Sequence record: MF327009
Reading direction: 5' to 3' (one strand)
DNA from: Shigella phage Sf25
Length of the DNA stretch: 64,000 nt
Part shown: positions 1,916-61,547 of the stretch, piece after piece
How the letters are laid out: each line of letters begins with the position of its first letter
Numbering within the stretch: the stretch's first letter is position 1
Notes under the pieces: generated by a model
What the model was told of the DNA's origin: nothing
Databases searched by the model: none
What the model saw: only the letters and a program-made list of their open reading frames with translations
Program-made: the position numbers and the translations under genes

Positions 1916-3626
1916 TAACCTTAATTGGTTTGTTGGTGTTGTTGAAGATAGAATGGACCCATTAAAATTAGGTCGTGTTCGTGTTCGTGTGGTTGGTCTG
2001 CATCCACCACAAAGAGCACAAGGTGATGTAATGGGTATTCCAACTGAAAAATTACCATGGATGTCAGTTATTCAACCTATAACTTCTGCAGCAATGTCTG
2101 GAATTGGAGGTTCTGTTACTGGACCGGTAGAAGGAACTAGAGTTTATGGTCATTTTTTGGACAAATGGAAAACTAACGGAATTGTCCTTGGCACGTATGG
2201 TGGAATAGTTCGCGAAAAACCGAATAGACTTGAAGGATTTTCTGACCCAACTGGGCAATATCCTAGACGTTTAGGAAATGATACTAACGTACTAAACCAA
2301 GGCGGTGATGTAGGATATGATTCCTCTTCTAATGTTATTCAAGATAGTAACTTAGACACTGCAATAAATCCTGATGATAGACCATTATCAGAAATTCCAA
2401 CTGATGATAATCCAAATATGTCAATGGCTGAAATGCTTCGCCGCGATGAAGGATTAAGACTAAAAGTTTATTGGGATACCGAAGGATATCCGACAATTGG
2501 TATTGGTCATCTTATCATGAAGCAGCCAGTTCGTGATATGGCCCAAATTAATAAAGTTTTATCAAAACAGGTTGGTCGTGAAATTACCGGAAATCCAGGT
2601 TCTATTACAATGGAAGAAGCGGTAACTTTATTTGAACGTGATTTAGCTGATATGCAACGTGACATTAAATCACATTCTAAAGTTGGCCCAGTTTGGCAAG
2701 CGGTTAATCGTTCTCGTCAAATGGCATTAGAAAATATGGCATTTCAGATGGGTGTTGGCGGTGTAGCTAAATTTAACACAATGTTAACTGCTATGTTAGC
2801 CGGAGATTGGGAAAAAGCATATAAAGCTGGTCGTGATTCATTGTGGTATCAACAAACAAAAGGCCGTGCATCTCGTGTTACCATGATTATTCTTACAGGG
2901 AATTTGGAATCATACGGTATTGAAGTGAAAACACCGGCTAGGTCTTTGTCTGCAATGGCTGCTACTGTAGCAAAGTCTTCTGACCCGGCTGACCCTCCTA
3001 TTCCGAATGATTCGAGAATTTTATTTAAAGAACCTGTTTCTTCATATAAAGGTGAATATCCGTATGTTCACACAATGGAAACTGAAAGCGGTCATATTCA
3101 GGAATTTGACGATACCCCGGGACAAGAACGATACAGATTAGTTCATCCAACTGGAACTTATGAAGAAGTATCACCGTCAGGAAGAAGAACAAGAAAAACT
3201 GTTGATAATTTGTATGATATAACCAACGCTGATGGTAATTTTTTGGTAGCCGGTGATAAAAAGACTAACGTCGGTGGATCAGAAATTTATTACAACATGG
3301 ATAATCGTCTTCACCAAATAGATGGAAGCAATACGATATTTGTGCGTGGCGATGAAACTAAGACAGTTGAAGGTAATGGAACTATCCTAGTTAAAGGCAA
3401 TGTTACTATTGTAGTTGAAGGTAATGCTGACATTACAGTTAAAGGAGATGCTACCACTTTAGTTGAAGGAAATCAGACTAATACAGTAAATGGAAATCTT
3501 TCTTGGAAAGTTGCTGGGACAGTTGATTGGGACGTTGGTGGTGATTGGACAGAAAAAATGGCATCTATGAGTTCTATTTCATCTGGTCAATACACAATTG
3601 ATGGATCGAGGATTGACATTGGCTAA
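1899..3626 (+). CDS. 5: gp5 baseplate hub subunit / tail-associated lysozyme (cell-puncturing spike)
   Basis: 575 aa; T4-lysozyme-like segment (EGLRLKVYWDTEGYPTIGIGHL); C-terminal VxGxxxV beta-helix repeats. Confidence 0.95.
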   Translation: MEMISNNLNWFVGVVEDRMDPLKLGRVRVRVVGLHPPQRAQGDVMGIPTEKLPWMSVIQPITSAAMSGIGGSVTGPVEGTRVYGHFLDKWKTNGIVLGTYGGIVREKPNRLEGFSDPTGQYPRRLGNDTNVLNQGGDVGYDSSSNVIQDSNLDTAINPDDRPLSEIPTDDNPNMSMAEMLRRDEGLRLKVYWDTEGYPTIGIGHLIMKQPVRDMAQINKVLSKQVGREITGNPGSITMEEAVTLFERDLADMQRDIKSHSKVGPVWQAVNRSRQMALENMAFQMGVGGVAKFNTMLTAMLAGDWEKAYKAGRDSLWYQQTKGRASRVTMIILTGNLESYGIEVKTPARSLSAMAATVAKSSDPADPPIPNDSRILFKEPVSSYKGEYPYVHTMETESGHIQEFDDTPGQERYRLVHPTGTYEEVSPSGRRTRKTVDNLYDITNADGNFLVAGDKKTNVGGSEIYYNMDNRLHQIDGSNTIFVRGDETKTVEGNGTILVKGNVTIVVEGNADITVKGDATTLVEGNQTNTVNGNLSWKVAGTVDWDVGGDWTEKMASMSSISSGQYTIDGSRIDIG

Positions 3627-4150
3627 TATACTTCCAATGAGCGCTGATTTAGGAGAATCCATGGAAGGTTCTTCTATCGACGTCACCTTTACCGCTCAAT
3701 TAGAAACAGGTGAAACGTTAGTATCTATAAATATAACTAGTTACGAAGAAACTCCTGGGGTTTTAGTAGAAGAAAATCGTTTATATGGAACGTATGAATC
3801 TGTATTTGGATTTGGAAATGATGCGTTGAAATATCGTTTAGACGTTGGTGGTGATTGGACAGAAAAAATGGCATCTATGAGTTCTATTTCATCTGGTCAA
3901 TACACAATTGATGGATCGAGGATTGACATTGGCTAATATACTTCCAATGAGCGCTGATTTAGGAGAATCCATGGAAGGTTCTTCTATCGACGTCACCTTT
4001 ACCGCTCAATTAGAAACAGGTGAAACGTTAGTATCTATAAATATAACTAGTTACGAAGAAACTCCTGGGGTTTTAGTAGAAGAAAATCGTTTATATGGAA
4101 CGTATGAATCTGTATTTGGATTTGGAAATGATGCGTTGAAATATCGTTTA
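3531..4150. repeat. perfect tandem duplication, 2 x 310 bp (3531-3840 and 3841-4150)
   Basis: identical sequence at offset 310; spans gene 5 3' end and gene 5.1 5' end. Confidence 0.95.
3601..3936 (+). other. chimeric ORF created by the duplication: first 80 codons of 5.1 fused in frame to last ~30 codons of gp5
   Basis: 112-aa ORF; C-terminus VGGDWTEKMASMSSISSGQYTIDGSRIDIG is identical to the gp5 C-terminus. Confidence 0.7.
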
Positions 4151-4465
4151 GATAATGAATTTAAAACCGCTGCTTCATGGGAAGACCTTCCAACTGATTC
4201 TAATACTCAGTTATATTTATGGAAAGCTCCTCAAAACCTCCAGAAGACATTCACTTACGAAGTAACATTAATATATGACTACCAAGAACAAGGTGAATCT
4301 GGAGGTTCTGGTAGTAATTCTAGGTCATCTTCTGATACTACTGAACCGACAGATCCTCCTGCTCTAGTAAGAAAAACTCTCGTTAAAAATTATACTAAAA
4401 CTATAGTTGGAAATTGGAGTCGTTGGGCTAATAAACTGAGAAGCTACGTGTATGAGAGGCCATAA
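3911..4465 (+). CDS. 5.1: gene 5.1-like protein (intact second copy)
   Basis: 184-aa ORF from ATG 3911, follows gene 5 as in T4. Confidence 0.7.
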   Translation: MDRGLTLANILPMSADLGESMEGSSIDVTFTAQLETGETLVSINITSYEETPGVLVEENRLYGTYESVFGFGNDALKYRLDNEFKTAASWEDLPTDSNTQLYLWKAPQNLQKTFTYEVTLIYDYQEQGESGGSGSNSRSSSDTTEPTDPPALVRKTLVKNYTKTIVGNWSRWANKLRSYVYERP

Positions 4466-4691
4466 ATGTCAGGATTAAGTTATGATAAGTGTGTTACTGC
4501 TGGCCATGAAGCGTGGCCTCCAACAGTCGTGAATGCTACAAATTAAAAAGCCATATGAAACACATGGCGGAGTGACACAACCTAGAACTTCTAAGGTATA
4601 TGTCACTGGAAAGAAAGCTGTTCAAATGGCTGATCCAATATCATGCGGTGATACTGTGGCTCAGGCATCATCTAAAGTATTCATTAAATAG
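4466..4691 (+). pseudogene. 5.4: gene 5.4 (PAAR-like tail spike tip) disrupted by internal ~68-bp deletion and frameshift
   Basis: ATG at 4466 encodes [26 protein letters not shown] then TAA at 4544; the C-terminal 48 codons (KKPYETHGG...[16 protein letters not shown]) continue in another frame to TAG 4689-4691. Confidence 0.75.
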
Positions 4692-32555: not shown

Positions 32556-32834
32556 TCAAAATGTAATTTCTAACCAATCACCATCACGCTGATCACTATT
32601 GACTTTAAAGCTGAATCCTTCTTTTCTCAGCCAATCACCAATTTCTTCAGTAATCAATTTATCGCGAGCAGTACAATAATAACTAAAATATGTTTTACCT
32701 TGTTCAGCTGCTTTATTAGCAAGTTCTGAAAAATCTTTAATAAAACACTCTAGCTTAAACTGTTTACTTTTTAATGCTTTTTCACGTAATTGATTAGCAA
32801 AAGATTCATTTTCATAAAGATCATACTGTTCCAT
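32556..32834 (-). CDS. hypothetical protein (T4 24.2 position)
   Basis: 92-aa ORF between rnlB and hoc. Confidence 0.55.
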   Translation of the reverse strand: MEQYDLYENESFANQLREKALKSKQFKLECFIKDFSELANKAAEQGKTYFSYYCTARDKLITEEIGDWLRKEGFSFKVNSDQRDGDWLEITF

Positions 32835-33036
32835 TTTTCACCTTTTTATTGATATGTCTTTTTCTATAGACAACTTTTTCTCGAGTTTCAAATTTATTCT
32901 TAGCAGTCATAGCTCGAGCCCATAATACAGCCACTTCTTTCGCCTGTAAGTTTAATTCACGAGCAATTTCAATGAATGACTTTCCAGACTCATGAAGAGT
33001 AAACACCACAACCTCAGTTCTCATAATCAATCTCAT
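32821..33036 (-). CDS. small helix-turn-helix-like protein (T4 24.3 position)
   Basis: 71-aa ORF; FIEIARELNLQAKEV resembles an HTH. Confidence 0.5.
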   Translation of the reverse strand: MRLIMRTEVVVFTLHESGKSFIEIARELNLQAKEVAVLWARAMTAKNKFETREKVVYRKRHINKKVKNGTV

Positions 33037-33326
33037 GTTATCGAGTTGGTGCCATTATATACATCATTTTCTGATTGTGTTTTGTGTGCTTTCAAAATGA
33101 AGAAAGGGGCCGAAGCCCCTTATGTAATACAGCCACTTCTTTCGCCTGTAAGTTTAATTCACGAGCAATTTCAATGAATGACTTTCCAGACTCATGAAGA
33201 GTAAACACCACAACCTCAGTTCTCATAATCAATCTCATGTTATCGAGTTGGTGCCATTATATACATCATTTTCTGATTGTGTTTTGTGTGCTTTCAAAAT
33301 GAAGAAAGGGGCCGAAGCCCCTTATG
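32923..33326. repeat. perfect tandem duplication, 2 x 202 bp (32923-33124 and 33125-33326)
   Basis: identical at offset 202; covers the 5' 38 codons of the small HTH gene, its upstream region and a GGGGCC-GAAG-CCCC hairpin. Confidence 0.95.
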
Positions 33327-33327
33327 A

Positions 33328-34392
33328 TTATGGATAGGTATAGATGATACCAGTTTCTAAAGCAGTTTTATGAATGATGTATCCATTACGTGATTCTTGA
33401 ACATCAACTTCTGGATAGTCTTTCATCATCTTCTGAAGCGTATAACGATGCAAGTAGTATTTACTATCTGGATCGTCAGTTTTCCAATCTTTACCTTCTT
33501 CGGTCATTTTTTGGATTTCATCCATAACCCACCAACCACACCAGATGTAAGCTGAAGTACGATGTGGAAGAGGATGAACATAAGGTAATTCACCTTCTGG
33601 CTCTGGAGCAACTTTATCAGTTACCTGAACTTGACCTTCCGCCGTAATAGTTTTGCTATCATAATCAGCAGCAGTAACAGTTGCAGTAACTTCAATAGTT
33701 TGACTTCCAATAGATGAGGTATCAATGGTATATACATTAGTTGACCCTTCTACAGGAGAAGAATCTTTCTTCCATGAATACGCAATTTGCGCTTCTTCTG
33801 GAGCATCAGTGACATTAGCAGTAAATGTAGCCGAAGCATCTTGTTGAACGTTAATAGAAGGAGGAGTCAATGTAACCTGTGGATTCATTGTCTTCTTATT
33901 AACTGTTAATGATACTTCATTCGAAGTAACTTCCTTTTCATTGTAATTTTCAGCAGTTACTTGGGCTACGCATTTAATTCTTTTTACTCCACTTGTAGTT
34001 GGAGTATAGCTAAATGTAGAGTTAGTTTCTCCACCAACTTGTGAATCATCTACATACCACTGATACGTAGCAGATGCGCCTGATGGCTGCGAAGCCAAAG
34101 CAGCGGTAAATTCAACAGCTGTTCCGATTACTCCTTCCGGAGGACTATTAGGAGTTACGGCTAAGGTAGTCGTCTGTGTCTTATTTTGAACTGTGATAGT
34201 TGTACTAATTTCAGCTGTTTCGGGACTACTATCGGCAACTTGATTTGTTGCAACTACTTTAATAGTCTTTTGACCGGCAGGTCCTTTTAATACATAACTA
34301 AAAGTTGCTTCAGCTCCATCTTGTGGAACATCATCTACAGTCCAAGCATATGTAATAGGTCCATCTCCAGTTTGACCACTGGGCGTAGCAGT
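33328..34392 (-). pseudogene. hoc: hoc (highly immunogenic outer capsid protein), 5'-truncated, no start codon
   Basis: Hoc reading frame open for ~354 codons (FTATPSGQTG... to ...GIIYTYP) but bounded upstream by an in-frame TAA at 34396-34398; no ATG/GTG/TTG before an internal TTG at 34096-34098. Confidence 0.7.
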
Positions 34393-35015
34393 AAATTAAT
34401 GTAATAAATTAAGCTAAATAATGTTTGGTGTGCAGAAGCATGCTCAAAACTAGTTGGGTGAGATTTCCAATCCGGAGTTTCAGCGATCCATTGATAAATC
34501 CACCAAGGAACAGTACAGAATCCTGGATTTTTTCCAATCAACTGAAGATTCGGGCTAAAGTTTTCCGGAAGAGTAAATACAGACGGCTTTTCAGATTCAA
34601 TAATCTCAGCTACAGCCTGTTCGAATTTTTCTTCAACAAAAGGAGTATCTTCAATCAAAACATCGGTATTTTCAGGAATTTTATCCGTTTCTACTACTTC
34701 AATTTTAATGTCAGATTTAACTGGAGAATCAATCAAAAGTGCTGCTTCTGGATTGACTTCTTCATCGTCATATTTTAATCCCTCTGCAGCATCAGCAGCA
34801 TCAATTAAGTCTTTAATAGATAACCCATCAGTCTCTGGCATAGGTTCACTAGCGAGCTTCTGGAGAGCTTCTTCAATATCAACAACGATATTATCAAAAG
34901 ATTTATTCTTTTTGACCTTTATACCAAACTGTTCAGCATATTCAGCTAATTTAGCTTTAGCTTCTTTGTTATCATCAAGAGCCTTCAGCTCTGCAATATA
35001 ATCTTTATCTATCAT
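34335..35015 (-). CDS. inh: Inh, inhibitor of prohead protease
   Basis: 226-aa ORF at the T4 inh position; its 3' end overlaps the hoc frame by ~56 nt. Confidence 0.7.
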   Translation of the reverse strand: MIDKDYIAELKALDDNKEAKAKLAEYAEQFGIKVKKNKSFDNIVVDIEEALQKLASEPMPETDGLSIKDLIDAADAAEGLKYDDEEVNPEAALLIDSPVKSDIKIEVVETDKIPENTDVLIEDTPFVEEKFEQAVAEIIESEKPSVFTLPENFSPNLQLIGKNPGFCTVPWWIYQWIAETPDWKSHPTSFEHASAHQTLFSLIYYINLLLRPVVKLEMDLLHMLGL

Positions 35016-35028
35016 AATATTTCCTCAG

Positions 35029-35036
35029 TATAAATA
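35029..35036 (+). promoter_or_regulatory. late promoter TATAAATA upstream of uvsW
   Basis: exact TATAAATA 30 nt upstream of ATG 35066. Confidence 0.55.
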
Positions 35037-35065
35037 TAGATATATTTATTACATGGTATTTAGAC

Positions 35066-36577
35066 ATGACTGACATTAAAGTACATTTTTATGATTTTAG
35101 TCACGTGAGAATTGATTGTGAAGAAAGTACATTTCATGAACTCCGTGATTTCTTTAGCTTTGAAGCTGATGGGTATCGTTTTAATCCGAAATACAAATAT
35201 GGCCACTGGGATGGACGAATCCGTCTTTTAGATTATAATCGTCTTCTTCCATTCGGCTTAGTCGGGCAAATTAAAAAGTTCTGTGATAACTTTGGCTATA
35301 AAGCCTGGATTGACCCACAAATTAACGAAAAAGAAGAATTATCAAGAAAAGATTTTGATGAATGGCTTTCTAAATTAGAAATCTATTCAGGAAATAAAAG
35401 AATTGAACCACACTGGTATCAAAAAGATGCAGTGTTCGAAGGATTAGTCAATCGTCGTAGAATTCTTAATCTTCCAACATCCGCTGGTAAATCGTTAATT
35501 CAAGCTTTGCTTGCGCGATATTATTTGGAAAATTATGAAGGTAAAATTCTTATCATTGTTCCAACAACTGCTCTAACAACTCAGATGGCTGATGACTTCG
35601 TTGACTATCGTTTATTCAGTCATGCAATGATAAAGAAAATTGGTGGCGGAGCATCAAAAGATGATAAATATAAAAATGATGCACCAGTCGTTGTTGGTAC
35701 ATGGCAAACTGTAGTAAAACAACCGAAAGAATGGTTCTCACAGTTTGGAATGATGATGAATGATGAATGCCATCTTGCTACAGGAAAAAGTATTTCATCT
35801 ATCATATCAGGTTTAAATAACTGCATGTTCAAATTTGGTCTATCTGGTTCATTACGTGATGGCAAAGCCAATATCATGCAGTATGTTGGAATGTTTGGTG
35901 AAATATTTAAGCCAGTAACGACTTCTAAGTTAATGGAAGATGGACAAGTAACTGAGCTAAAAATTAATAGTATTTTTCTTCGCTATCCCGATGAGTTCAC
36001 TACTAAATTAAAGGGAAAAACTTATCAAGAAGAAATAAAAATTATTACGGGGCTTAGTAAAAGAAATAAATGGATCGCTAAATTAGCTATTAAGCTTGCG
36101 CAAAAAGATGAAAACGCTTTTGTCATGTTTAAACACGTATCGCACGGTAAAGCTATTTTCGATTTAATTAAAAATGAATACGATAAAGTTTATTACGTAT
36201 CAGGGGAAGTTGATACCGAAACCCGCAATATAATGAAAACCTTAGCTGAAAACGGTAAAGGAATAATTATAGTAGCTAGTTATGGTGTATTTTCTACTGG
36301 TATTTCAGTTAAAAATCTGCATCACGTTGTTTTAGCACACGGTGTTAAATCTAAAATTATTGTATTGCAAACAATAGGTCGCGTATTACGTAAGCATGGT
36401 TCTAAAACAATCGCAACAGTCTGGGACCTCATAGATGATTGCGGTGTTAAGCCAAAATCTGCTAATACGAAAAAGAAATATGTTCATTTGAACTATCTTT
36501 TAAAACACGGCATTGATCGTATTCAGCGCTACGCAGATGAAAAATTCAATTACGTAATGAAAACAGTTAATTTATAA
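35066..36577 (+). CDS. uvsW: UvsW recombination/repair helicase (SF2)
   Basis: 503 aa; Walker A PTSAGKS; DExH-like MMNDECH. Confidence 0.9.
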   Translation: MTDIKVHFYDFSHVRIDCEESTFHELRDFFSFEADGYRFNPKYKYGHWDGRIRLLDYNRLLPFGLVGQIKKFCDNFGYKAWIDPQINEKEELSRKDFDEWLSKLEIYSGNKRIEPHWYQKDAVFEGLVNRRRILNLPTSAGKSLIQALLARYYLENYEGKILIIVPTTALTTQMADDFVDYRLFSHAMIKKIGGGASKDDKYKNDAPVVVGTWQTVVKQPKEWFSQFGMMMNDECHLATGKSISSIISGLNNCMFKFGLSGSLRDGKANIMQYVGMFGEIFKPVTTSKLMEDGQVTELKINSIFLRYPDEFTTKLKGKTYQEEIKIITGLSKRNKWIAKLAIKLAQKDENAFVMFKHVSHGKAIFDLIKNEYDKVYYVSGEVDTETRNIMKTLAENGKGIIIVASYGVFSTGISVKNLHHVVLAHGVKSKIIVLQTIGRVLRKHGSKTIATVWDLIDDCGVKPKSANTKKKYVHLNYLLKHGIDRIQRYADEKFNYVMKTVNL

Positions 36578-37084: not shown

Positions 37085-37309
37085 TTATACAACTCTCATA
37101 TGCATATCAATGCCCATATCTTTAGAATAAAAATATTCATCAAGATATCCGGCAAATTTTCCTTTAATATAAAGGACATCTTCACCGCATGGATGGTCGG
37201 CCAGGATACGAATATCCTGACGCTTAAGATTATGCTTTTTCATTAAGAATTGAATTTCCGTTTCAAATTCTTCTTCATAATTAAAAGCATCATCAATGCT
37301 ATATCTCAT
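37085..37309 (-). CDS. hypothetical protein (T4 uvsY.-1 position)
   Basis: 74-aa ORF directly downstream of uvsY. Confidence 0.55.
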   Translation of the reverse strand: MRYSIDDAFNYEEEFETEIQFLMKKHNLKRQDIRILADHPCGEDVLYIKGKFAGYLDEYFYSKDMGIDMHMRVV

Positions 37310-45393: not shown

Positions 45394-45424
45394 TTTGTGT
45401 TCCTCATGTTATGTCAGTAAGATT

Positions 45425-45453
45425 ACTATAACACAACACGAGGGACTTGTAAA
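45425..45453 (-). promoter_or_regulatory. sigma70-like early promoter (-35 TTTACA, 17-nt spacer, extended -10 TGtTATAGT)
   Basis: reverse complement of 45401-45454 reads GTTTACA...TGTTATAGT; the 54-bp element is identical to 61491-61544. Confidence 0.65.
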
Positions 45454-47511
45454 CTACATCTTGAACTTTTTAGACATTCCGTTGATGTTAACCAAAGAAG
45501 CCAAGATTTGAGAAACTTCGTTTTCCTCTTCTTTTGATTCTTCTACGAGGAATTGATTAAACCCAGCCATTGGACGAACTTCGCCAGTTTCCATTAGATG
45601 ATCGCCATCATATACCGATTCTTCTAATTGTTCAGAAGGAGGAACGATTGTGCCTTCGATTAGATACTTGTTATAAGCAGTTTCTTTCATCATGTACGTG
45701 CTTACTTTATTAATCTTCAACAAAATTCCACGCGGTAGAATAACTTCAGCTTCTGATGGAAATCCTGATAAATGACCTGGAACGATAACTTTGATTCGCT
45801 CAGCTCCTTTAATTACCATACCCACGCTAGTTTCAGCATCTTCATTAGCATATGTAGAATGACTACCCATATGCATCAAATCTTCTGCATCAATGGAACC
45901 TTCTCCTTCACCAGAAAATACTGCGCCGGAATCATCTAGAGCCATATAGTTTTTACCATGCTCACCGAAGATATTTGGTTTAAGCGATGTTGATACGAAG
46001 TTCTTGAAATAGAACATTTTATTTTCAATGTTATGACGCAAAGTTTTAAAGGTAACTTCTTGCCCACGATAAAGAGTAGTTCCTGGAGGAAGAACTGAAC
46101 CTTTAGCAAATGCAGAATCCAACGTCTCGATGTGTTTAATAGCTCGTTCCATATATTCTTCACGGGTAGAATCAGGTTTACCTAAAAGGAACGAGTTCAT
46201 TTCAACATATGAATCTGCACAATAATCTTCAATTACATCAGACTCAGCCTGAGTTAATCCTTTTGGAGTTACTTCAGTGCTTGCGTATTCATATGCCTGA
46301 GCGGCAGATTCATTAATCAATTTATAAATGCCATTCATGACAAATTGAATAATAGCTGTCTTTTCATCTGGTGTAGCTTTAGAACCTTTAACTAAATCAT
46401 TGATAATTTTCTTAATAACATCAAAGCTATTAGAAATATTAATGTCAGCAAGATCGCTTAAAATTTTATCAGTTTTATAATCAAAGAATTCTTTATTCTT
46501 TAAATATTCTTGAGAACCTTGATATGTTATATCGCTCTGCAACTTGATAGATGGATCACGTAAACGTGCATGGGCTAATGCAATATGATTTCGGAAACTT
46601 TCTAGTTCATAATCGTTAGATTTAAAACGAGAAGCACTTCTCATACCACCGATAGCTCCTTTGCTAAAGTTTGAACCAATCTGAATAACGCCAGAGTTCA
46701 TCGGACCTTCTGCTTTATATACCGGAACTTTAGATTCAAACTCTTGATATTTCTTAGCAGCGAAGCTATCACCCTGAAGTGAAGCATCAACAGTAGAATA
46801 TTGAGCTTGTGCTGCTAATCGACGACTAATTTTAGTTTTCTGAATAACAGCTTGATCCGTGCGCTTATCATTTTCTAAAGCAATAGAAGCAGCAACAGCG
46901 ACAGCTTTAGGAACAGCATTACCTGTTTTAACGTCTACATAAACATCACCAACCTTTGATTCAACTTTTGTGAATAACTCAGTTGAAATAGGAGGTACAC
47001 CTGGAATGTCTTCTAAATTGGCATTTTTACGGTAAACCATAATATATGCATATTTCTTATCATAGTCCCAGATTTCCTTTAAAAGAACATATCGACCTGC
47101 TCCTTTAGTACGTACTAAACGGTCAGCAATAACTTGCATTTGACGAGCAGCGCCATTTGTTTTACTCTTTAGTACGCGGAATAAGCATGCATCAATTTTA
47201 TACTGTTTCATTGTTTGAAGAGCAGTATCAAAAACAGCATTAATGACGCCAATTGGATTTCCACCCAAGTTTTTAAGCTTGACTAACGATAATTTCTCGT
47301 TGACACCTATCATTACGATATGCATCATTTTGTCGCCTGGCTTAACGTTTTTATTCGTATCACCGCCAGAGGTGTATGTACAAAATCTAAATCCAGGAAG
47401 CACGCTTTCTTCACCGGCTTGAATAGCAAAAATTTGTGGTATTTTATGCTTAGGATTTAAGTTAACAACCGGCGCCGAAGCGCCGTCAAATAATTCTGTA
47501 ATAAGTTCCAT
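45454..47511 (-). CDS. Alt-family ADP-ribosyltransferase paralog
   Basis: 685 aa; N-terminal MELITELFD shared with Alt; ART motifs YRGQ, FVSTSL, SEAEVILPRG. Confidence 0.85.
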   Translation of the reverse strand: MELITELFDGASAPVVNLNPKHKIPQIFAIQAGEESVLPGFRFCTYTSGGDTNKNVKPGDKMMHIVMIGVNEKLSLVKLKNLGGNPIGVINAVFDTALQTMKQYKIDACLFRVLKSKTNGAARQMQVIADRLVRTKGAGRYVLLKEIWDYDKKYAYIMVYRKNANLEDIPGVPPISTELFTKVESKVGDVYVDVKTGNAVPKAVAVAASIALENDKRTDQAVIQKTKISRRLAAQAQYSTVDASLQGDSFAAKKYQEFESKVPVYKAEGPMNSGVIQIGSNFSKGAIGGMRSASRFKSNDYELESFRNHIALAHARLRDPSIKLQSDITYQGSQEYLKNKEFFDYKTDKILSDLADINISNSFDVIKKIINDLVKGSKATPDEKTAIIQFVMNGIYKLINESAAQAYEYASTEVTPKGLTQAESDVIEDYCADSYVEMNSFLLGKPDSTREEYMERAIKHIETLDSAFAKGSVLPPGTTLYRGQEVTFKTLRHNIENKMFYFKNFVSTSLKPNIFGEHGKNYMALDDSGAVFSGEGEGSIDAEDLMHMGSHSTYANEDAETSVGMVIKGAERIKVIVPGHLSGFPSEAEVILPRGILLKINKVSTYMMKETAYNKYLIEGTIVPPSEQLEESVYDGDHLMETGEVRPMAGFNQFLVEESKEEENEVSQILASLVNINGMSKKFKM

Positions 47512-54465: not shown

Positions 54466-54807
54466 TTATGCTTTCTGCTTACCAAAACGAGAAGCATCAT
54501 CTCGAAGAACCGCACGTGCTCGGCGCATGATCTTCTCAACAGTTTGATTGATACGAGAGTTCGACCCACGCTTGTAGCCAGCGCGTTTAGAATCACCAAC
54601 TTTCTTTTCAACTGCTTTCTTTGCTTTAGCTTGTTTTTTCTGCTTACCAAAACGAGAAGCATCATCTCGAAGAACCGCACGTGCTCGGCGCATGATCTTC
54701 TCAACAGTTTGATTGATACGAGAGTTCGACCCACGCTTGTAGCCAGCGCGTTTAGAATCACCAACTTTCTTTTCAACTGCTTTCTTTGCTTTAGCTTGTT
54801 TTGCCAT
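54466..54807 (-). CDS. small lysine/arginine-rich protein carrying an in-frame 55-codon tandem duplication
   Basis: from ATG 54807: MAKQAKAKKAVEKK...RFGKQK then KQAKAKKAVEKK...RFGKQKA; 113 aa, about 58 aa without the duplication. Confidence 0.65.
   Translation of the reverse strand: MAKQAKAKKAVEKKVGDSKRAGYKRGSNSRINQTVEKIMRRARAVLRDDASRFGKQKKQAKAKKAVEKKVGDSKRAGYKRGSNSRINQTVEKIMRRARAVLRDDASRFGKQKA
54472..54801. repeat. perfect tandem duplication, 2 x 165 bp (54472-54636 and 54637-54801)
   Basis: identical at offset 165, in frame within the basic-protein gene. Confidence 0.95.
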
Positions 54808-55095
54808 TATAAATTCTCTTTTAAATGAAAATGCAGGACTTATTGGCATTGCCTGCGCAAGCCCTCAAGGGGAACATAGGTTTTTGGATATTTAACGACC
54901 AGGATAACCATAAACCCGTCATCATACCACCAAGACTTACACAGATAACACTTTTCTGACGCATGATAGTAACATTCAAGAGGTACACCGTAAAACTGCC
55001 GGGGTCTTGAAACTATAATGATTCGCAAATCATTAATCAGACAGTTCGACGGCTCCTCGATTTAGCTCACACTAAGGCAGTGAATCTCCAATAAA

Positions 55096-55344
55096 TTACT
55101 TCAATGTTACCACAAAGTGACGAACTGCTTTTCGTGCAGCAGAAGCCAGAGGCTTAGCATACTTAAGTTCATCTTTTTCCTGGAGCTCAGCAGCTAATGC
55201 AGTTTGAGCAGGATTCAGATGTTTGAAATAACGCAGGATTTCAAGAGCTTCGGCTTCAACATCAATAGATGCGCCATAGTTTTCGTGACCATTATTCCAT
55301 GCGTTTCGTTGCAGTTCAAGAGCGTGTTGTAATTGTTTAATCAT
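55096..55344 (-). CDS. rIII: rIII lysis-inhibition accessory protein
   Basis: 82-aa ORF directly downstream of gene 31 as in T4. Confidence 0.7.
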   Translation of the reverse strand: MIKQLQHALELQRNAWNNGHENYGASIDVEAEALEILRYFKHLNPAQTALAAELQEKDELKYAKPLASAARKAVRHFVVTLK

Positions 55345-55428
55345 TTAAAAATTCTCGTTAGAGATTAAAACTCGGTAGTCACGTTCTTCTGAATTTCATC
55401 TTCTTTCGACAGATCTCTCAGTTGTAGA

Positions 55429-55734
55429 CTAACAGGTAACGAATTTTTGTTTAATTTCTTTTGGCTGCTTAAGACCCAGAGCTACAAAAGGGTGTGGAAC
55501 GTTTCGAATTTGACCAACTGGAAGAGAAGTCAAATCACCAACTTCACAGAAACCTTCAGGAACATCAGGACCAACAGAGTGAACTACACACAGTTCAGGA
55601 ACTTCACCTTGAACACGTTTACCGATAATAAGTCCTGATTCTGTAACTTCTTCATCACCGGCTTGTGCAGGTTCAGAAACTAAAATAACATATTCACCGA
55701 CAGCACGAATTGGTAGCTGTTGTACTTCAGACAT
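55429..55734 (-). CDS. 31: gp31 co-chaperonin (GroES analogue)
   Basis: 101-aa [25 protein letters not shown]...; T4 synteny. Confidence 0.8.
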
Positions 55735-57252: not shown

Positions 57253-57485
57253 AGTACGCCATACACCCTTTGTGCTTCAACTAATCCATCAAAATCCAGT
57301 TTAAGATGTGTTATTTGATCACCATCACCTGGATTCACAATTACTAATACTGAACGAGGAGTTTCGGTAATAACACGAACCGATGTTTCAGGAAATCGTT
57401 CAGAAACCTTATTTACCAATTCCTGAGCAAATAGTTTAACTTTTTCTTGGAATTCTTTAACAGTAATTGGTTTTTCACTTAGCAT
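57249..57485 (-). CDS. hypothetical early protein
   Basis: 78-aa ORF. Confidence 0.5.
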   Translation of the reverse strand: MLSEKPITVKEFQEKVKLFAQELVNKVSERFPETSVRVITETPRSVLVIVNPGDGDQITHLKLDFDGLVEAQRVYGVL

Positions 57486-58006
57486 GTTGATCCCAGCTCC
57501 TTACTTTCAACGTTTTTAACTAATTTGACAGAAACTAATTCGGCATCTTGGGTAATCATTACCGGGCCTTCTTCATACTCTTCAAGATATTCTAGAGCTT
57601 TCTTTTTAGCTTCTTCCTTCGTATCAGTTTGAGCATAGATATAGAACATACAACCAGTAATACCTACTACTTTCCACTTAATTTCTTTATCAGTTTTAAT
57701 TTCAAATTTACTGATAGAGTCATCTTTTTGAACTTCTTCGAAAAAATAATATTCTGACATATAAGTAATTGAAAATAACGGGCTATCTTTATAAGATTCG
57801 CCCATTACATCAACAGCTTTATACCAGCAGTCATCAATTTCACGTTTAATGCTAATAACATTTTTCGCAGAATCTATTTTTACTTTAAATGAATTTTCCC
57901 CAATAAACTTGGCAATTCGTTTATTAGCCCCGCAAGTTTCATTAAAAATATCTTTATATCCAGCTTTAAAGCGATAAACCTTATCTTCTTCAAACCATTT
58001 GCTCAT
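57479..58006 (-). CDS. hypothetical early protein
   Basis: 175-aa ORF preceded by an early promoter. Confidence 0.55.
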   Translation of the reverse strand: MSKWFEEDKVYRFKAGYKDIFNETCGANKRIAKFIGENSFKVKIDSAKNVISIKREIDDCWYKAVDVMGESYKDSPLFSITYMSEYYFFEEVQKDDSISKFEIKTDKEIKWKVVGITGCMFYIYAQTDTKEEAKKKALEYLEEYEEGPVMITQDAELVSVKLVKNVESKELGSTC

Positions 58007-59965: not shown

Positions 59966-60196
59966 TTATTTCTCAACCAATGATTGAATATAATCATGCA
60001 GGTCTTTAGATGCTTTACCCCACTTATTTTGGTATTCATTTTTAAGATTAGCCCGAGATTGAGCTAATAAAACATCATTAGTTGGAGGTAAAGATTCTAA
60101 CCGTTGAATCTGGCGTCCATAAATCATTGCAGCCATCTCGGATTCATAAATCAATCCTTTGAGATGTTCAAATTGATGCCATGAAATCATTTGCAT
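59966..60196 (-). CDS. hypothetical protein
   Basis: 76-aa ORF. Confidence 0.5.
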   Translation of the reverse strand: MQMISWHQFEHLKGLIYESEMAAMIYGRQIQRLESLPPTNDVLLAQSRANLKNEYQNKWGKASKDLHDYIQSLVEK

Positions 60197-60639
60197 TTAT
60201 CCTCTTTTAACTCTTGACGATAATAACATATCATAGTTTTCTGATCATGTACATATCGTTTTACATCATTAAGCCAAATGCGAAATTCCTGGGAATCTTC
60301 AAATGGCATACCGACCCAAGCTTTACCATCAATAACTTTAACTTGCCAGGATAGTTTAGCTTCATCGTATGACTTTATTTGTACTGGCCAATTAGGATGA
60401 ACTGTTTCTTTCTTTACTTCTAGAGGCTTTGTCGAACAACCAACTAGAAGACCAATAGATAATATTACCCAAGCTTTACCATCAATAACTTTAACTTGCC
60501 AGGATAGTTTAGCTTCATCGTATGACTTTATTTGTACTGGCCAATTAGGATGAACTGTTTCTTTCTTTACTTCTAGAGGCTTTGTCGAACAACCAACTAG
60601 AAGACCAATAGATAATATTACTGCTGATAGTTTAATCAT
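60187..60639 (-). CDS. outer-membrane spanin (o-spanin lipoprotein) carrying an in-frame 51-codon tandem duplication
   Basis: 150 aa; signal peptide with lipobox LLVGC; residues ILSIGLLVGCSTKPLEV...DGKAWV occur twice in tandem. Confidence 0.7.
   Translation of the reverse strand: MIKLSAVILSIGLLVGCSTKPLEVKKETVHPNWPVQIKSYDEAKLSWQVKVIDGKAWVILSIGLLVGCSTKPLEVKKETVHPNWPVQIKSYDEAKLSWQVKVIDGKAWVGMPFEDSQEFRIWLNDVKRYVHDQKTMICYYRQELKEDKCK
60314..60619. repeat. perfect tandem duplication, 2 x 153 bp (60314-60466 and 60467-60619)
   Basis: identical at offset 153, in frame within the o-spanin gene. Confidence 0.95.
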
Positions 60640-61483: not shown

Positions 61484-61514
61484 CATAAAGTCCTCATGTT
61501 ATGTCAGTAAGATT

Positions 61515-61543
61515 ACTATAACACAACACGAGGGACTTGTAAA
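61515..61543 (-). promoter_or_regulatory. sigma70-like early promoter upstream of alc (second copy of the 54-bp element)
   Basis: 61491-61544 is identical to 45401-45454: -35 TTTACA, 17-nt spacer, TGtTATAGT. Confidence 0.65.
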
Positions 61544-61547
61544 CAGC

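Follow-up and report, generated by a model that had tools for sequence, protein, structure and literature searches.

The question raised by the inh-hoc locus of the Shigella phage Sf25 record (MF327009) is whether the beginning of hoc has been lost from the phage or from its deposited sequence. The window analyzed here is a 64,000-nt stretch of that record, in which inh, hoc and 24.3 follow one another on one strand, an order shared with T4, Sf24 and ten other loci. The sequence-only reading of this DNA had described a hoc frame that is open to the C-terminus behind an in-frame TAA, lacks about 21 N-terminal residues and offers no start codon until an internal TTG about 100 codons in, and all of this is borne out. 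Protein alignment finds exactly residues 1-21 of Hoc absent and the remaining 355 present; F22 is encoded by TTT at 34395-34393, directly behind the TAA, and the frame then stays open until the stop at 33330-33328. The first ATG, GTG or TTG of the frame is the TTG at 34098-34096, residue 121 in T4 numbering, so that 99 codons without a canonical start follow the junction. The remnant is 88-90% identical to the Hoc proteins of T4 (89%), Sf24 and L010, another intact Hoc. It gives an above-cut-off Pfam PKD match (E = 4e-5) together with weaker Ig_3/I-set matches, and the missing 21 residues belong to the first N-terminal Hoc domain. The capsid-binding domain, T4 residues 281-376 (PMC10385173), is kept in a gap-free alignment, identical to that of Sf24 and with 1 difference from T4 and 2 from L010. 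In intact relatives the hoc ATG lies 9 nt past the inh stop and has its own ribosome-binding site; neither is present in the window, and since both are missing the remnant does not strictly belong to the functional hoc gene family. Taken as written, the window encodes no translatable full-length Hoc (Table 1).

Table 1. Coordinates of the inh-hoc locus, of the other rearrangements in the window and of two split hoc loci in other records
Feature	Position	Strand	Basis or remark
Gene 24.3, intact (DUF2774, 71 aa)	32821..33036	(-)	ORF list
Tandem duplication, 202 nt, perfect	32923/33125; 32923..33326 (32923-33124 + 33125-33326)		self-comparison; absent from relatives examined; 3' of hoc stop
Second gene 24.3 copy, truncated (48 aa)	33092-33238		inside duplicated unit
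hoc remnant, codons 22-376 and stop	33328..34395	(-)	alignment; PKD/Ig matches; domain map (PMC10385173)
'Head outer capsid protein' AUV63313.1, 256 aa, TTG start	33328..34098	(-)	depositors' annotation
First in-frame ATG (Hoc M191), preceded by AAGAAGACA	33886..33888	(-)	start scan; candidate
Chimeric inh ORF, 226 aa	34335..35015	(-)	ORF list; alignment; identical to AUV63314.1
Deletion, 133 nt, inh / hoc	34395/34396; 34395..34396	(-)	alignment; exact flank extension vs QOTSP and Shigella phage A2; Sf24 block map
In-frame TAA directly upstream of hoc codon 22	34396..34398	(-)	sequence reading
uvsW helicase gene, divergent from inh	35066..36577	(+)	ORF list; context
Tandem duplication, 310 nt	3531/3841		gene 5 / 5.1 boundary
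Deletion, 68 nt	4539/4540		gene 5.4
Tandem duplication, 165 nt	54472/54637		within gene 30.9
Gene 31 ORF, 101-aa gp31	55429-55734		AUV63344.1
Deletion, 72 nt vs Sf24, 93 nt vs SholemSchwarzbard	55431/55432		gene 31 3' end
Tandem duplication, 153 nt	60314/60467		within Rz1-type spanin gene
Split hoc locus, CE1 (L018)	2385-2425		two ORFs
Split hoc locus, IME537 (L019)	2518-2560		two ORFs

One 133-nt deletion accounts for the whole pattern at the 5' end of hoc and the 3' end of inh. Escherichia phage QOTSP and Shigella phage A2 share the hoc 5' allele of the window at 99-99.5% identity, and aligning them with it shows a single clean gap; these two phages and Sf24 each carry 133 additional nt at this point, and the same 133 nt of the (-) strand are missing between window positions 34396 and 34395 relative to every relative examined. 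Precisely at the junction, mismatches to Sf24 drop from a density of 14-20 per 100 nt to none, and exact flank extension finds 0 nt of microhomology there. The (-) strand reads TTA TTA CAT TAA / TTT ACT GCT ACG CCC, the deposited junction being ATTACATTAA/TTTACTGCT and the intact form CCGTGACGGATCAG...CAGACTCAGCAG. The TAA in front of hoc codon 22 is made by the junction: inh codon 206 (ATT) supplies its T, and codon 207 supplies the AA as its first two bases. The lost segment begins with the third base of inh codon 207 and ends with the last base of hoc codon 21; it includes the last 19 inh codons (208-226) with their stop, the 9-nt inh-hoc spacer GGATAACTT with its AAGGA Shine-Dalgarno sequence overlapping the inh stop, and the hoc ribosome-binding site, ATG and codons 1-21.

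The allele is an inh lesion as well as a hoc lesion. The product of inh is a minor head protein, the inhibitor of the prohead protease gp21, and AUV63314.1 is annotated as 'inhibitor of prohead protease' in the Sf25 deposit. As 133 is not divisible by three, the inh frame continues through hoc DNA out of frame, the hoc frame being -1 relative to that of the chimeric inh. Residues 1-207 of Inh (34395-35015) are native, identical to those of Sf24 and QOTSP and with 2 substitutions relative to T4, and residues 208-226, LLLRPVVKLEMDLLHMLGL, are translated from hoc DNA in the other frame (34338-34394, stop at 34335-34337). They replace the native tail RDGSVLIRETRNSSFVTLK, which is the same in T4, Sf24 and QOTSP. 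The window Inh thus lacks the conserved C-terminal tail of the full-length 226-aa protein, and the comparison with reference Inh for which the sequence-only reading had called identifies residues 208-226 as foreign. That reading was right that the inh frame runs into hoc and ends at 34335; its overlap of about 56 nt has to be corrected to 61 nt counting the stop, or 58 nt without it. The single 133-nt deletion, the 19-residue Inh tail swap and the 202-nt duplication abutting the hoc stop go beyond what it had noticed.

This lesion is private to the Sf25 record. When a collection of 50,697 phage records was searched, the junction was matched in two pieces 133 nt apart in all of the best 30-40 of 600-845 matching records; a record with the same junction would rank among these. 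Neither the 133-nt gap nor any of the six other rearrangements described below was found among the matches listed (about 500-950 related records per search); these align as two or three segments, whose span matches the query length once the duplication is subtracted and the deletion added. Queries of 201 nt and 76 nt across the junction likewise found the same allele in none of the phage-record matches listed, and the exact junction 36-mer is absent from the phage records and from the viral, metagenome and genome contig collections. In all ten contigs with an identical RnlB both genes are intact (inh 226 aa, hoc 376-664 aa), and each has one copy of the terminator and duplicated unit. At the protein level, the chimeric Inh, the TTG-start Hoc, the 101-aa gp31 and the duplicated 30.9 and Rz1 products have exact matches to Sf25 proteins only, and exact-protein searches of contigs gave no match for the chimeric Inh, the 48-aa 24.3 fragment or the duplicated Rz1. 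The phage records of the collection reach at most about 97.5% identity to the window over 24 kb. Edits planted in silico were considered and are ruled out by the presence of the rearranged proteins in NCBI under Sf25 accessions; the 133-nt lesion is already public, annotated in the Sf25 record but apparently without discussion.

The deletion has a counterpart at the other end of hoc. A perfect 202-nt tandem duplication begins 2 nt past the hoc stop and doubles the terminator hairpin of hoc (33306-33323 and 33104-33121), the interval from there to the 24.3 start and the initial 38 codons of 24.3. The duplication forms the left end, and the 133-nt gap the right end, of a 1,271-nt block, 33125-34395. 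Comparison with Sf24, a sibling from the same laboratory whose position 1 corresponds to window position 1, together with self-comparison, reveals seven structural differences in the window that are seen in no other phage: four tandem duplications and three deletions (Table 1). In each of the four duplications the two copies match at 100% identity. The junctions of the 310-, 202-, 165- and 153-nt duplications have 2, 0, 1 and 2 nt of microhomology and those of the 68-, 133- and 72-nt deletions 0-1, 0 and 0 nt; this 0-2 nt is the expectation for random breakpoints. The 68-, 133- and 72-nt deletions sit 0.70, 1.27 and 0.80 kb downstream of a duplication; such a pairing of three out of three deletions with an upstream duplication has P = 5e-4 if the events are independent, which indicates that the seven events are not. 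Each of the blocks 3841-4539, 33125-34395 and 54637-55431 shares an overlap with the block before it and stops short of the one after it, and the join at 60467 has an overlap only.

These events take no account of what the genes encode. The 310-nt duplication (3531-4150) produces a fusion ORF of 5.1 with the gene 5 tail (3637-3936, Sf25_gp5, 99 aa), followed by an intact 5.1 at 3947-4465. The 68-nt deletion frameshifts gene 5.4, which encodes a PAAR-type spike tip and is annotated only as a 52-aa C-terminal remnant (4533-4691, Sf25_gp7). The 165-nt duplication (54472-54801) adds 55 codons in frame to gene 30.9, the product of which is 127 aa (Sf25_gp62) versus 72 aa in relatives. The 153-nt duplication (60314-60619) adds 51 codons in frame and doubles the lipobox region of the Rz1-type o-spanin (ORF 60187-60639, 150 aa, Sf25_gp77), which forms a singleton protein cluster. 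Elsewhere the window is clean, with 28.5 kb free of indels at 99.4% identity to Sf24. Three further differences or repeats were considered as anomalies and set aside. The 514-nt insertion at 57490-58003 relative to Sf24 is ordinary mosaic gene content, its 175-aa ORF (57479-58006) encoding the same protein as is found in T6, RB32/33, PST and others; a 101-nt difference from Sf24 at 37090 is ordinary natural variation; and both copies of a 54-nt repeat (45401-45454 and 61491-61544) are present in Sf24. Of the two sites of this repeat, 16 kb apart, one precedes an alt-like gene and the other is located where alc meets rnlA; it is a natural repeated element, perhaps a promoter region.

The deletion in gene 31 bears most directly on viability. 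It creates a TAG at the junction and removes the last 10 residues of gp31, HYKAIPCLYK. The gp31 co-chaperonin is essential, and GroES is no substitute for it in folding the major capsid protein (PMC3012670). Of 1,393 phage records with a gp31 homologue, 1,392 have a match that covers at least 80% of the 111-aa protein, and the matches sampled, with identities as low as 35%, extend to residues 109-111; a single-sequence AlphaFold2 model of gp31, at a pLDDT of 35, says nothing on the role of the last 10 residues. Judging from this conservation, the truncation would be lethal. Sf25 is an isolated and propagated phage, in which a lethal gp31 lesion cannot be real.

We propose, with a probability of roughly 60%, that the 133-nt gap reflects blocks joined out of register in the Sf25 record rather than a mutation of the phage. 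During building of the record, the 1,271-nt block 33125-34395 would have been joined out of register to its neighbors: its 202-nt overlap with the left neighbor would have been left untrimmed, giving the perfect tandem duplication, and at the right, where the block is 133 nt short of its neighbor, the join would have been closed with the gap unfilled. Blocks 3841-4539 and 54637-55431 show the same overlap followed by a shortfall, and the fourth join, at 60467, an overlap only; the biological Sf25 would then carry ordinary inh and hoc genes. Seven blunt, record-private rearrangements that are paired and include a truncated gp31 fit misjoined blocks better than mutation. A lesion private to one record whose close relatives are intact counts in the same direction, as do the 100% identity of the duplications with their 0-2 nt of microhomology, and the otherwise clean sequence. 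An artefact is expected to leave several like junctions in one record, coupled in position and indifferent to gene function, and this is what the window contains.

Errors in joining contigs resemble the Sf25 pattern in giving perfect duplications and blunt deletions that alternate within one record and ignore gene function, but the Sf25 overlaps of 153-310 nt exceed typical de Bruijn k-mer overlaps. De Bruijn assemblers, moreover, collapse tandem duplications more than they create them, and an artefact of this kind therefore needs a manual or reference-guided joining step. Against a misjoined record it also counts that the depositors annotated the ORFs and flagged no problem, and that the 165- and 153-nt duplications are both in frame, which has a chance of about 1 in 9; in-frame intragenic duplications are also expected under selection in a living phage.

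A genuine deletion, natural or acquired during passage, that left the Sf25 stock hoc-null and its Inh with a swapped 19-residue tail is the main alternative, less likely but possible, and we entertain it tentatively. Such a lesion would be tolerable, as both genes are dispensable (PMC10385173, PMC3012670); the hoc frame is broken by 1-nt changes in an A7 run in other deposits too (CE1 and IME537), the record was deposited and annotated with the deletion, and the intragenic duplications elsewhere in the window keep the frame. It would, however, share its blunt, record-private signature with six other rearrangements, one of them its partner, and these siblings truncate the essential gp31 and frameshift the spike-tip gene 5.4. 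Homologous recombination is very active in T4-type phages, and perfect tandem repeats of 150-310 nt should be lost quickly. That all seven rearrangements are real in a viable Sf25, through serial template switching in a T4-type phage, appears unlikely to us. The replisome would have to step back 150-310 nt, copy 0.7-1.3 kb and jump forward 70-130 nt, each time free of microhomology, a course of events that we likewise consider improbable. If this were true, Sf25 would offer a naturally Hoc-less capsid, a tail-swapped Inh and a gp31 working without its last 10 residues.

If the deletion were real, a short Hoc started at TTG121 or ATG191 might still decorate the capsid, although we see very little chance of this. 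The capsid-binding domain is wholly kept (PMC10385173), and Hoc binding is undisturbed by N-terminal fusions (PMC3012670). Natural Hoc proteins with fewer Ig-like domains (one or two) before the capsid-binding domain exist in the Enterobacter phage PG7 (233 aa) and as the second Hoc of the Serratia phage Muldoon (314 aa) (PMC10385173); these, however, are complete genes with their own starts, whereas the Sf25 remnant has none. The start sites themselves argue against such a product: no Shine-Dalgarno-like sequence lies upstream of TTG121, ATG191 is preceded by a weak AAGAAG only, 3 nt away, and both sites are deep in the coding region, where relatives give no evidence of independent initiation. 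ATG191 is the sole remotely plausible internal start, and its product would consist of one Ig domain and the capsid-binding domain. An Inh-Hoc fusion produced by -1 ribosomal frameshifting within the 58-nt overlap is scarcely credible; the two frames do overlap in the required -1 register, but an X XXY YYZ slippery heptamer was not found in the overlap, which was created by the deletion and hence has no evolutionary history.

The sequence-only reading had taken the locus for a natural or laboratory hoc-null allele. Its core stands in that no full-length Hoc is encoded as written; the step to an allele presumes that the sequence mirrors the phage DNA, against which the seven record-private rearrangements speak. 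Phages lacking hoc were already known in 1977 and now serve as standard tools, hoc- soc- strains being used in antigen display; the laboratory hoc-minus T4 mutants reportedly go back to Ishii and Yanagida in that year. These T4 mutants are viable with no Hoc on the capsid (PMC3012670, PMC10385173), which is the likeness to Sf25, but their lesions are amber or engineered ones in T4, whereas that of Sf25 is a 133-nt junction deletion that alters Inh too and whose physical reality is doubtful. A known laboratory T4 hoc deletion is ruled out as the source by the Hoc remnant, only 89% identical to T4 Hoc.

Other parallels are the public records of the Tequatrovirus phages vB_EcoM_CE1 (ON229909.1) and vB_EcoM_IME537 (MT179807.1), in which the hoc frame is also broken. 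Their C-terminal Hoc fragments (186 or 231 aa) fall into the same 90% cluster as the Sf25 fragment. Unlike Sf25, both phages keep an intact inh and the hoc start codon, and the change is one of a single base: hoc codons 158-160 (GTT AAA AAA AT) contain an A7 run that reads A6 (-1) in CE1 and A8 (+1) in IME537. This run is a recurrent homopolymer hotspot, either of sequencing error or of on/off Hoc variation.

Read literally, the locus would let ribosomes that translate inh append 19 residues of unrelated sequence and terminate after 58 nt of hoc, with no Hoc expected. Hoc is nonessential under laboratory conditions, as the sequence-only reading had stated (PMC10385173, PMC3012670), and a viable phage would be expected, with capsids devoid of the 155 Hoc fibers and an Inh whose function could change; as the capsid-binding domain is kept, an internally initiated fragment has a small chance of binding. 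Whether or not it is real, the lesion amounts to loss of function in a dispensable gene and brings no new mechanism. If the record is in error, the first 64 kb of the public Sf25 genome hold at least seven structural errors, and AUV63313.1, AUV63314.1, AUV63344.1, AUV63342.1, AUV63357.1, AUV63286.1 and AUV63288.1, with their UniRef entries, are unfit as evidence of natural variation. The practical value would in that case be a curation warning that covers the Sf25 record as well as its derived proteins.

Two observations concern the neighborhood of the junction and the relatives of hoc. The inh-uvsW spacer (35016-35065) is without segE, unlike that of T4, and in segE-less phages this spacer is reported to contain the SegE cleavage site (PMC2330249). 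A link of the deletion to SegE homing was considered and dropped, as the junction lies about 620 nt from the spacer with the SegE site and no supporting evidence for such a link was found. Among the contigs with an identical RnlB (L004-L013), Hoc is 376, 472, 474, 568 or 664 aa long, in steps of about 96 residues that correspond to one Ig-like domain each, which shows that Hoc length changes fast and modularly among near-identical backbones.
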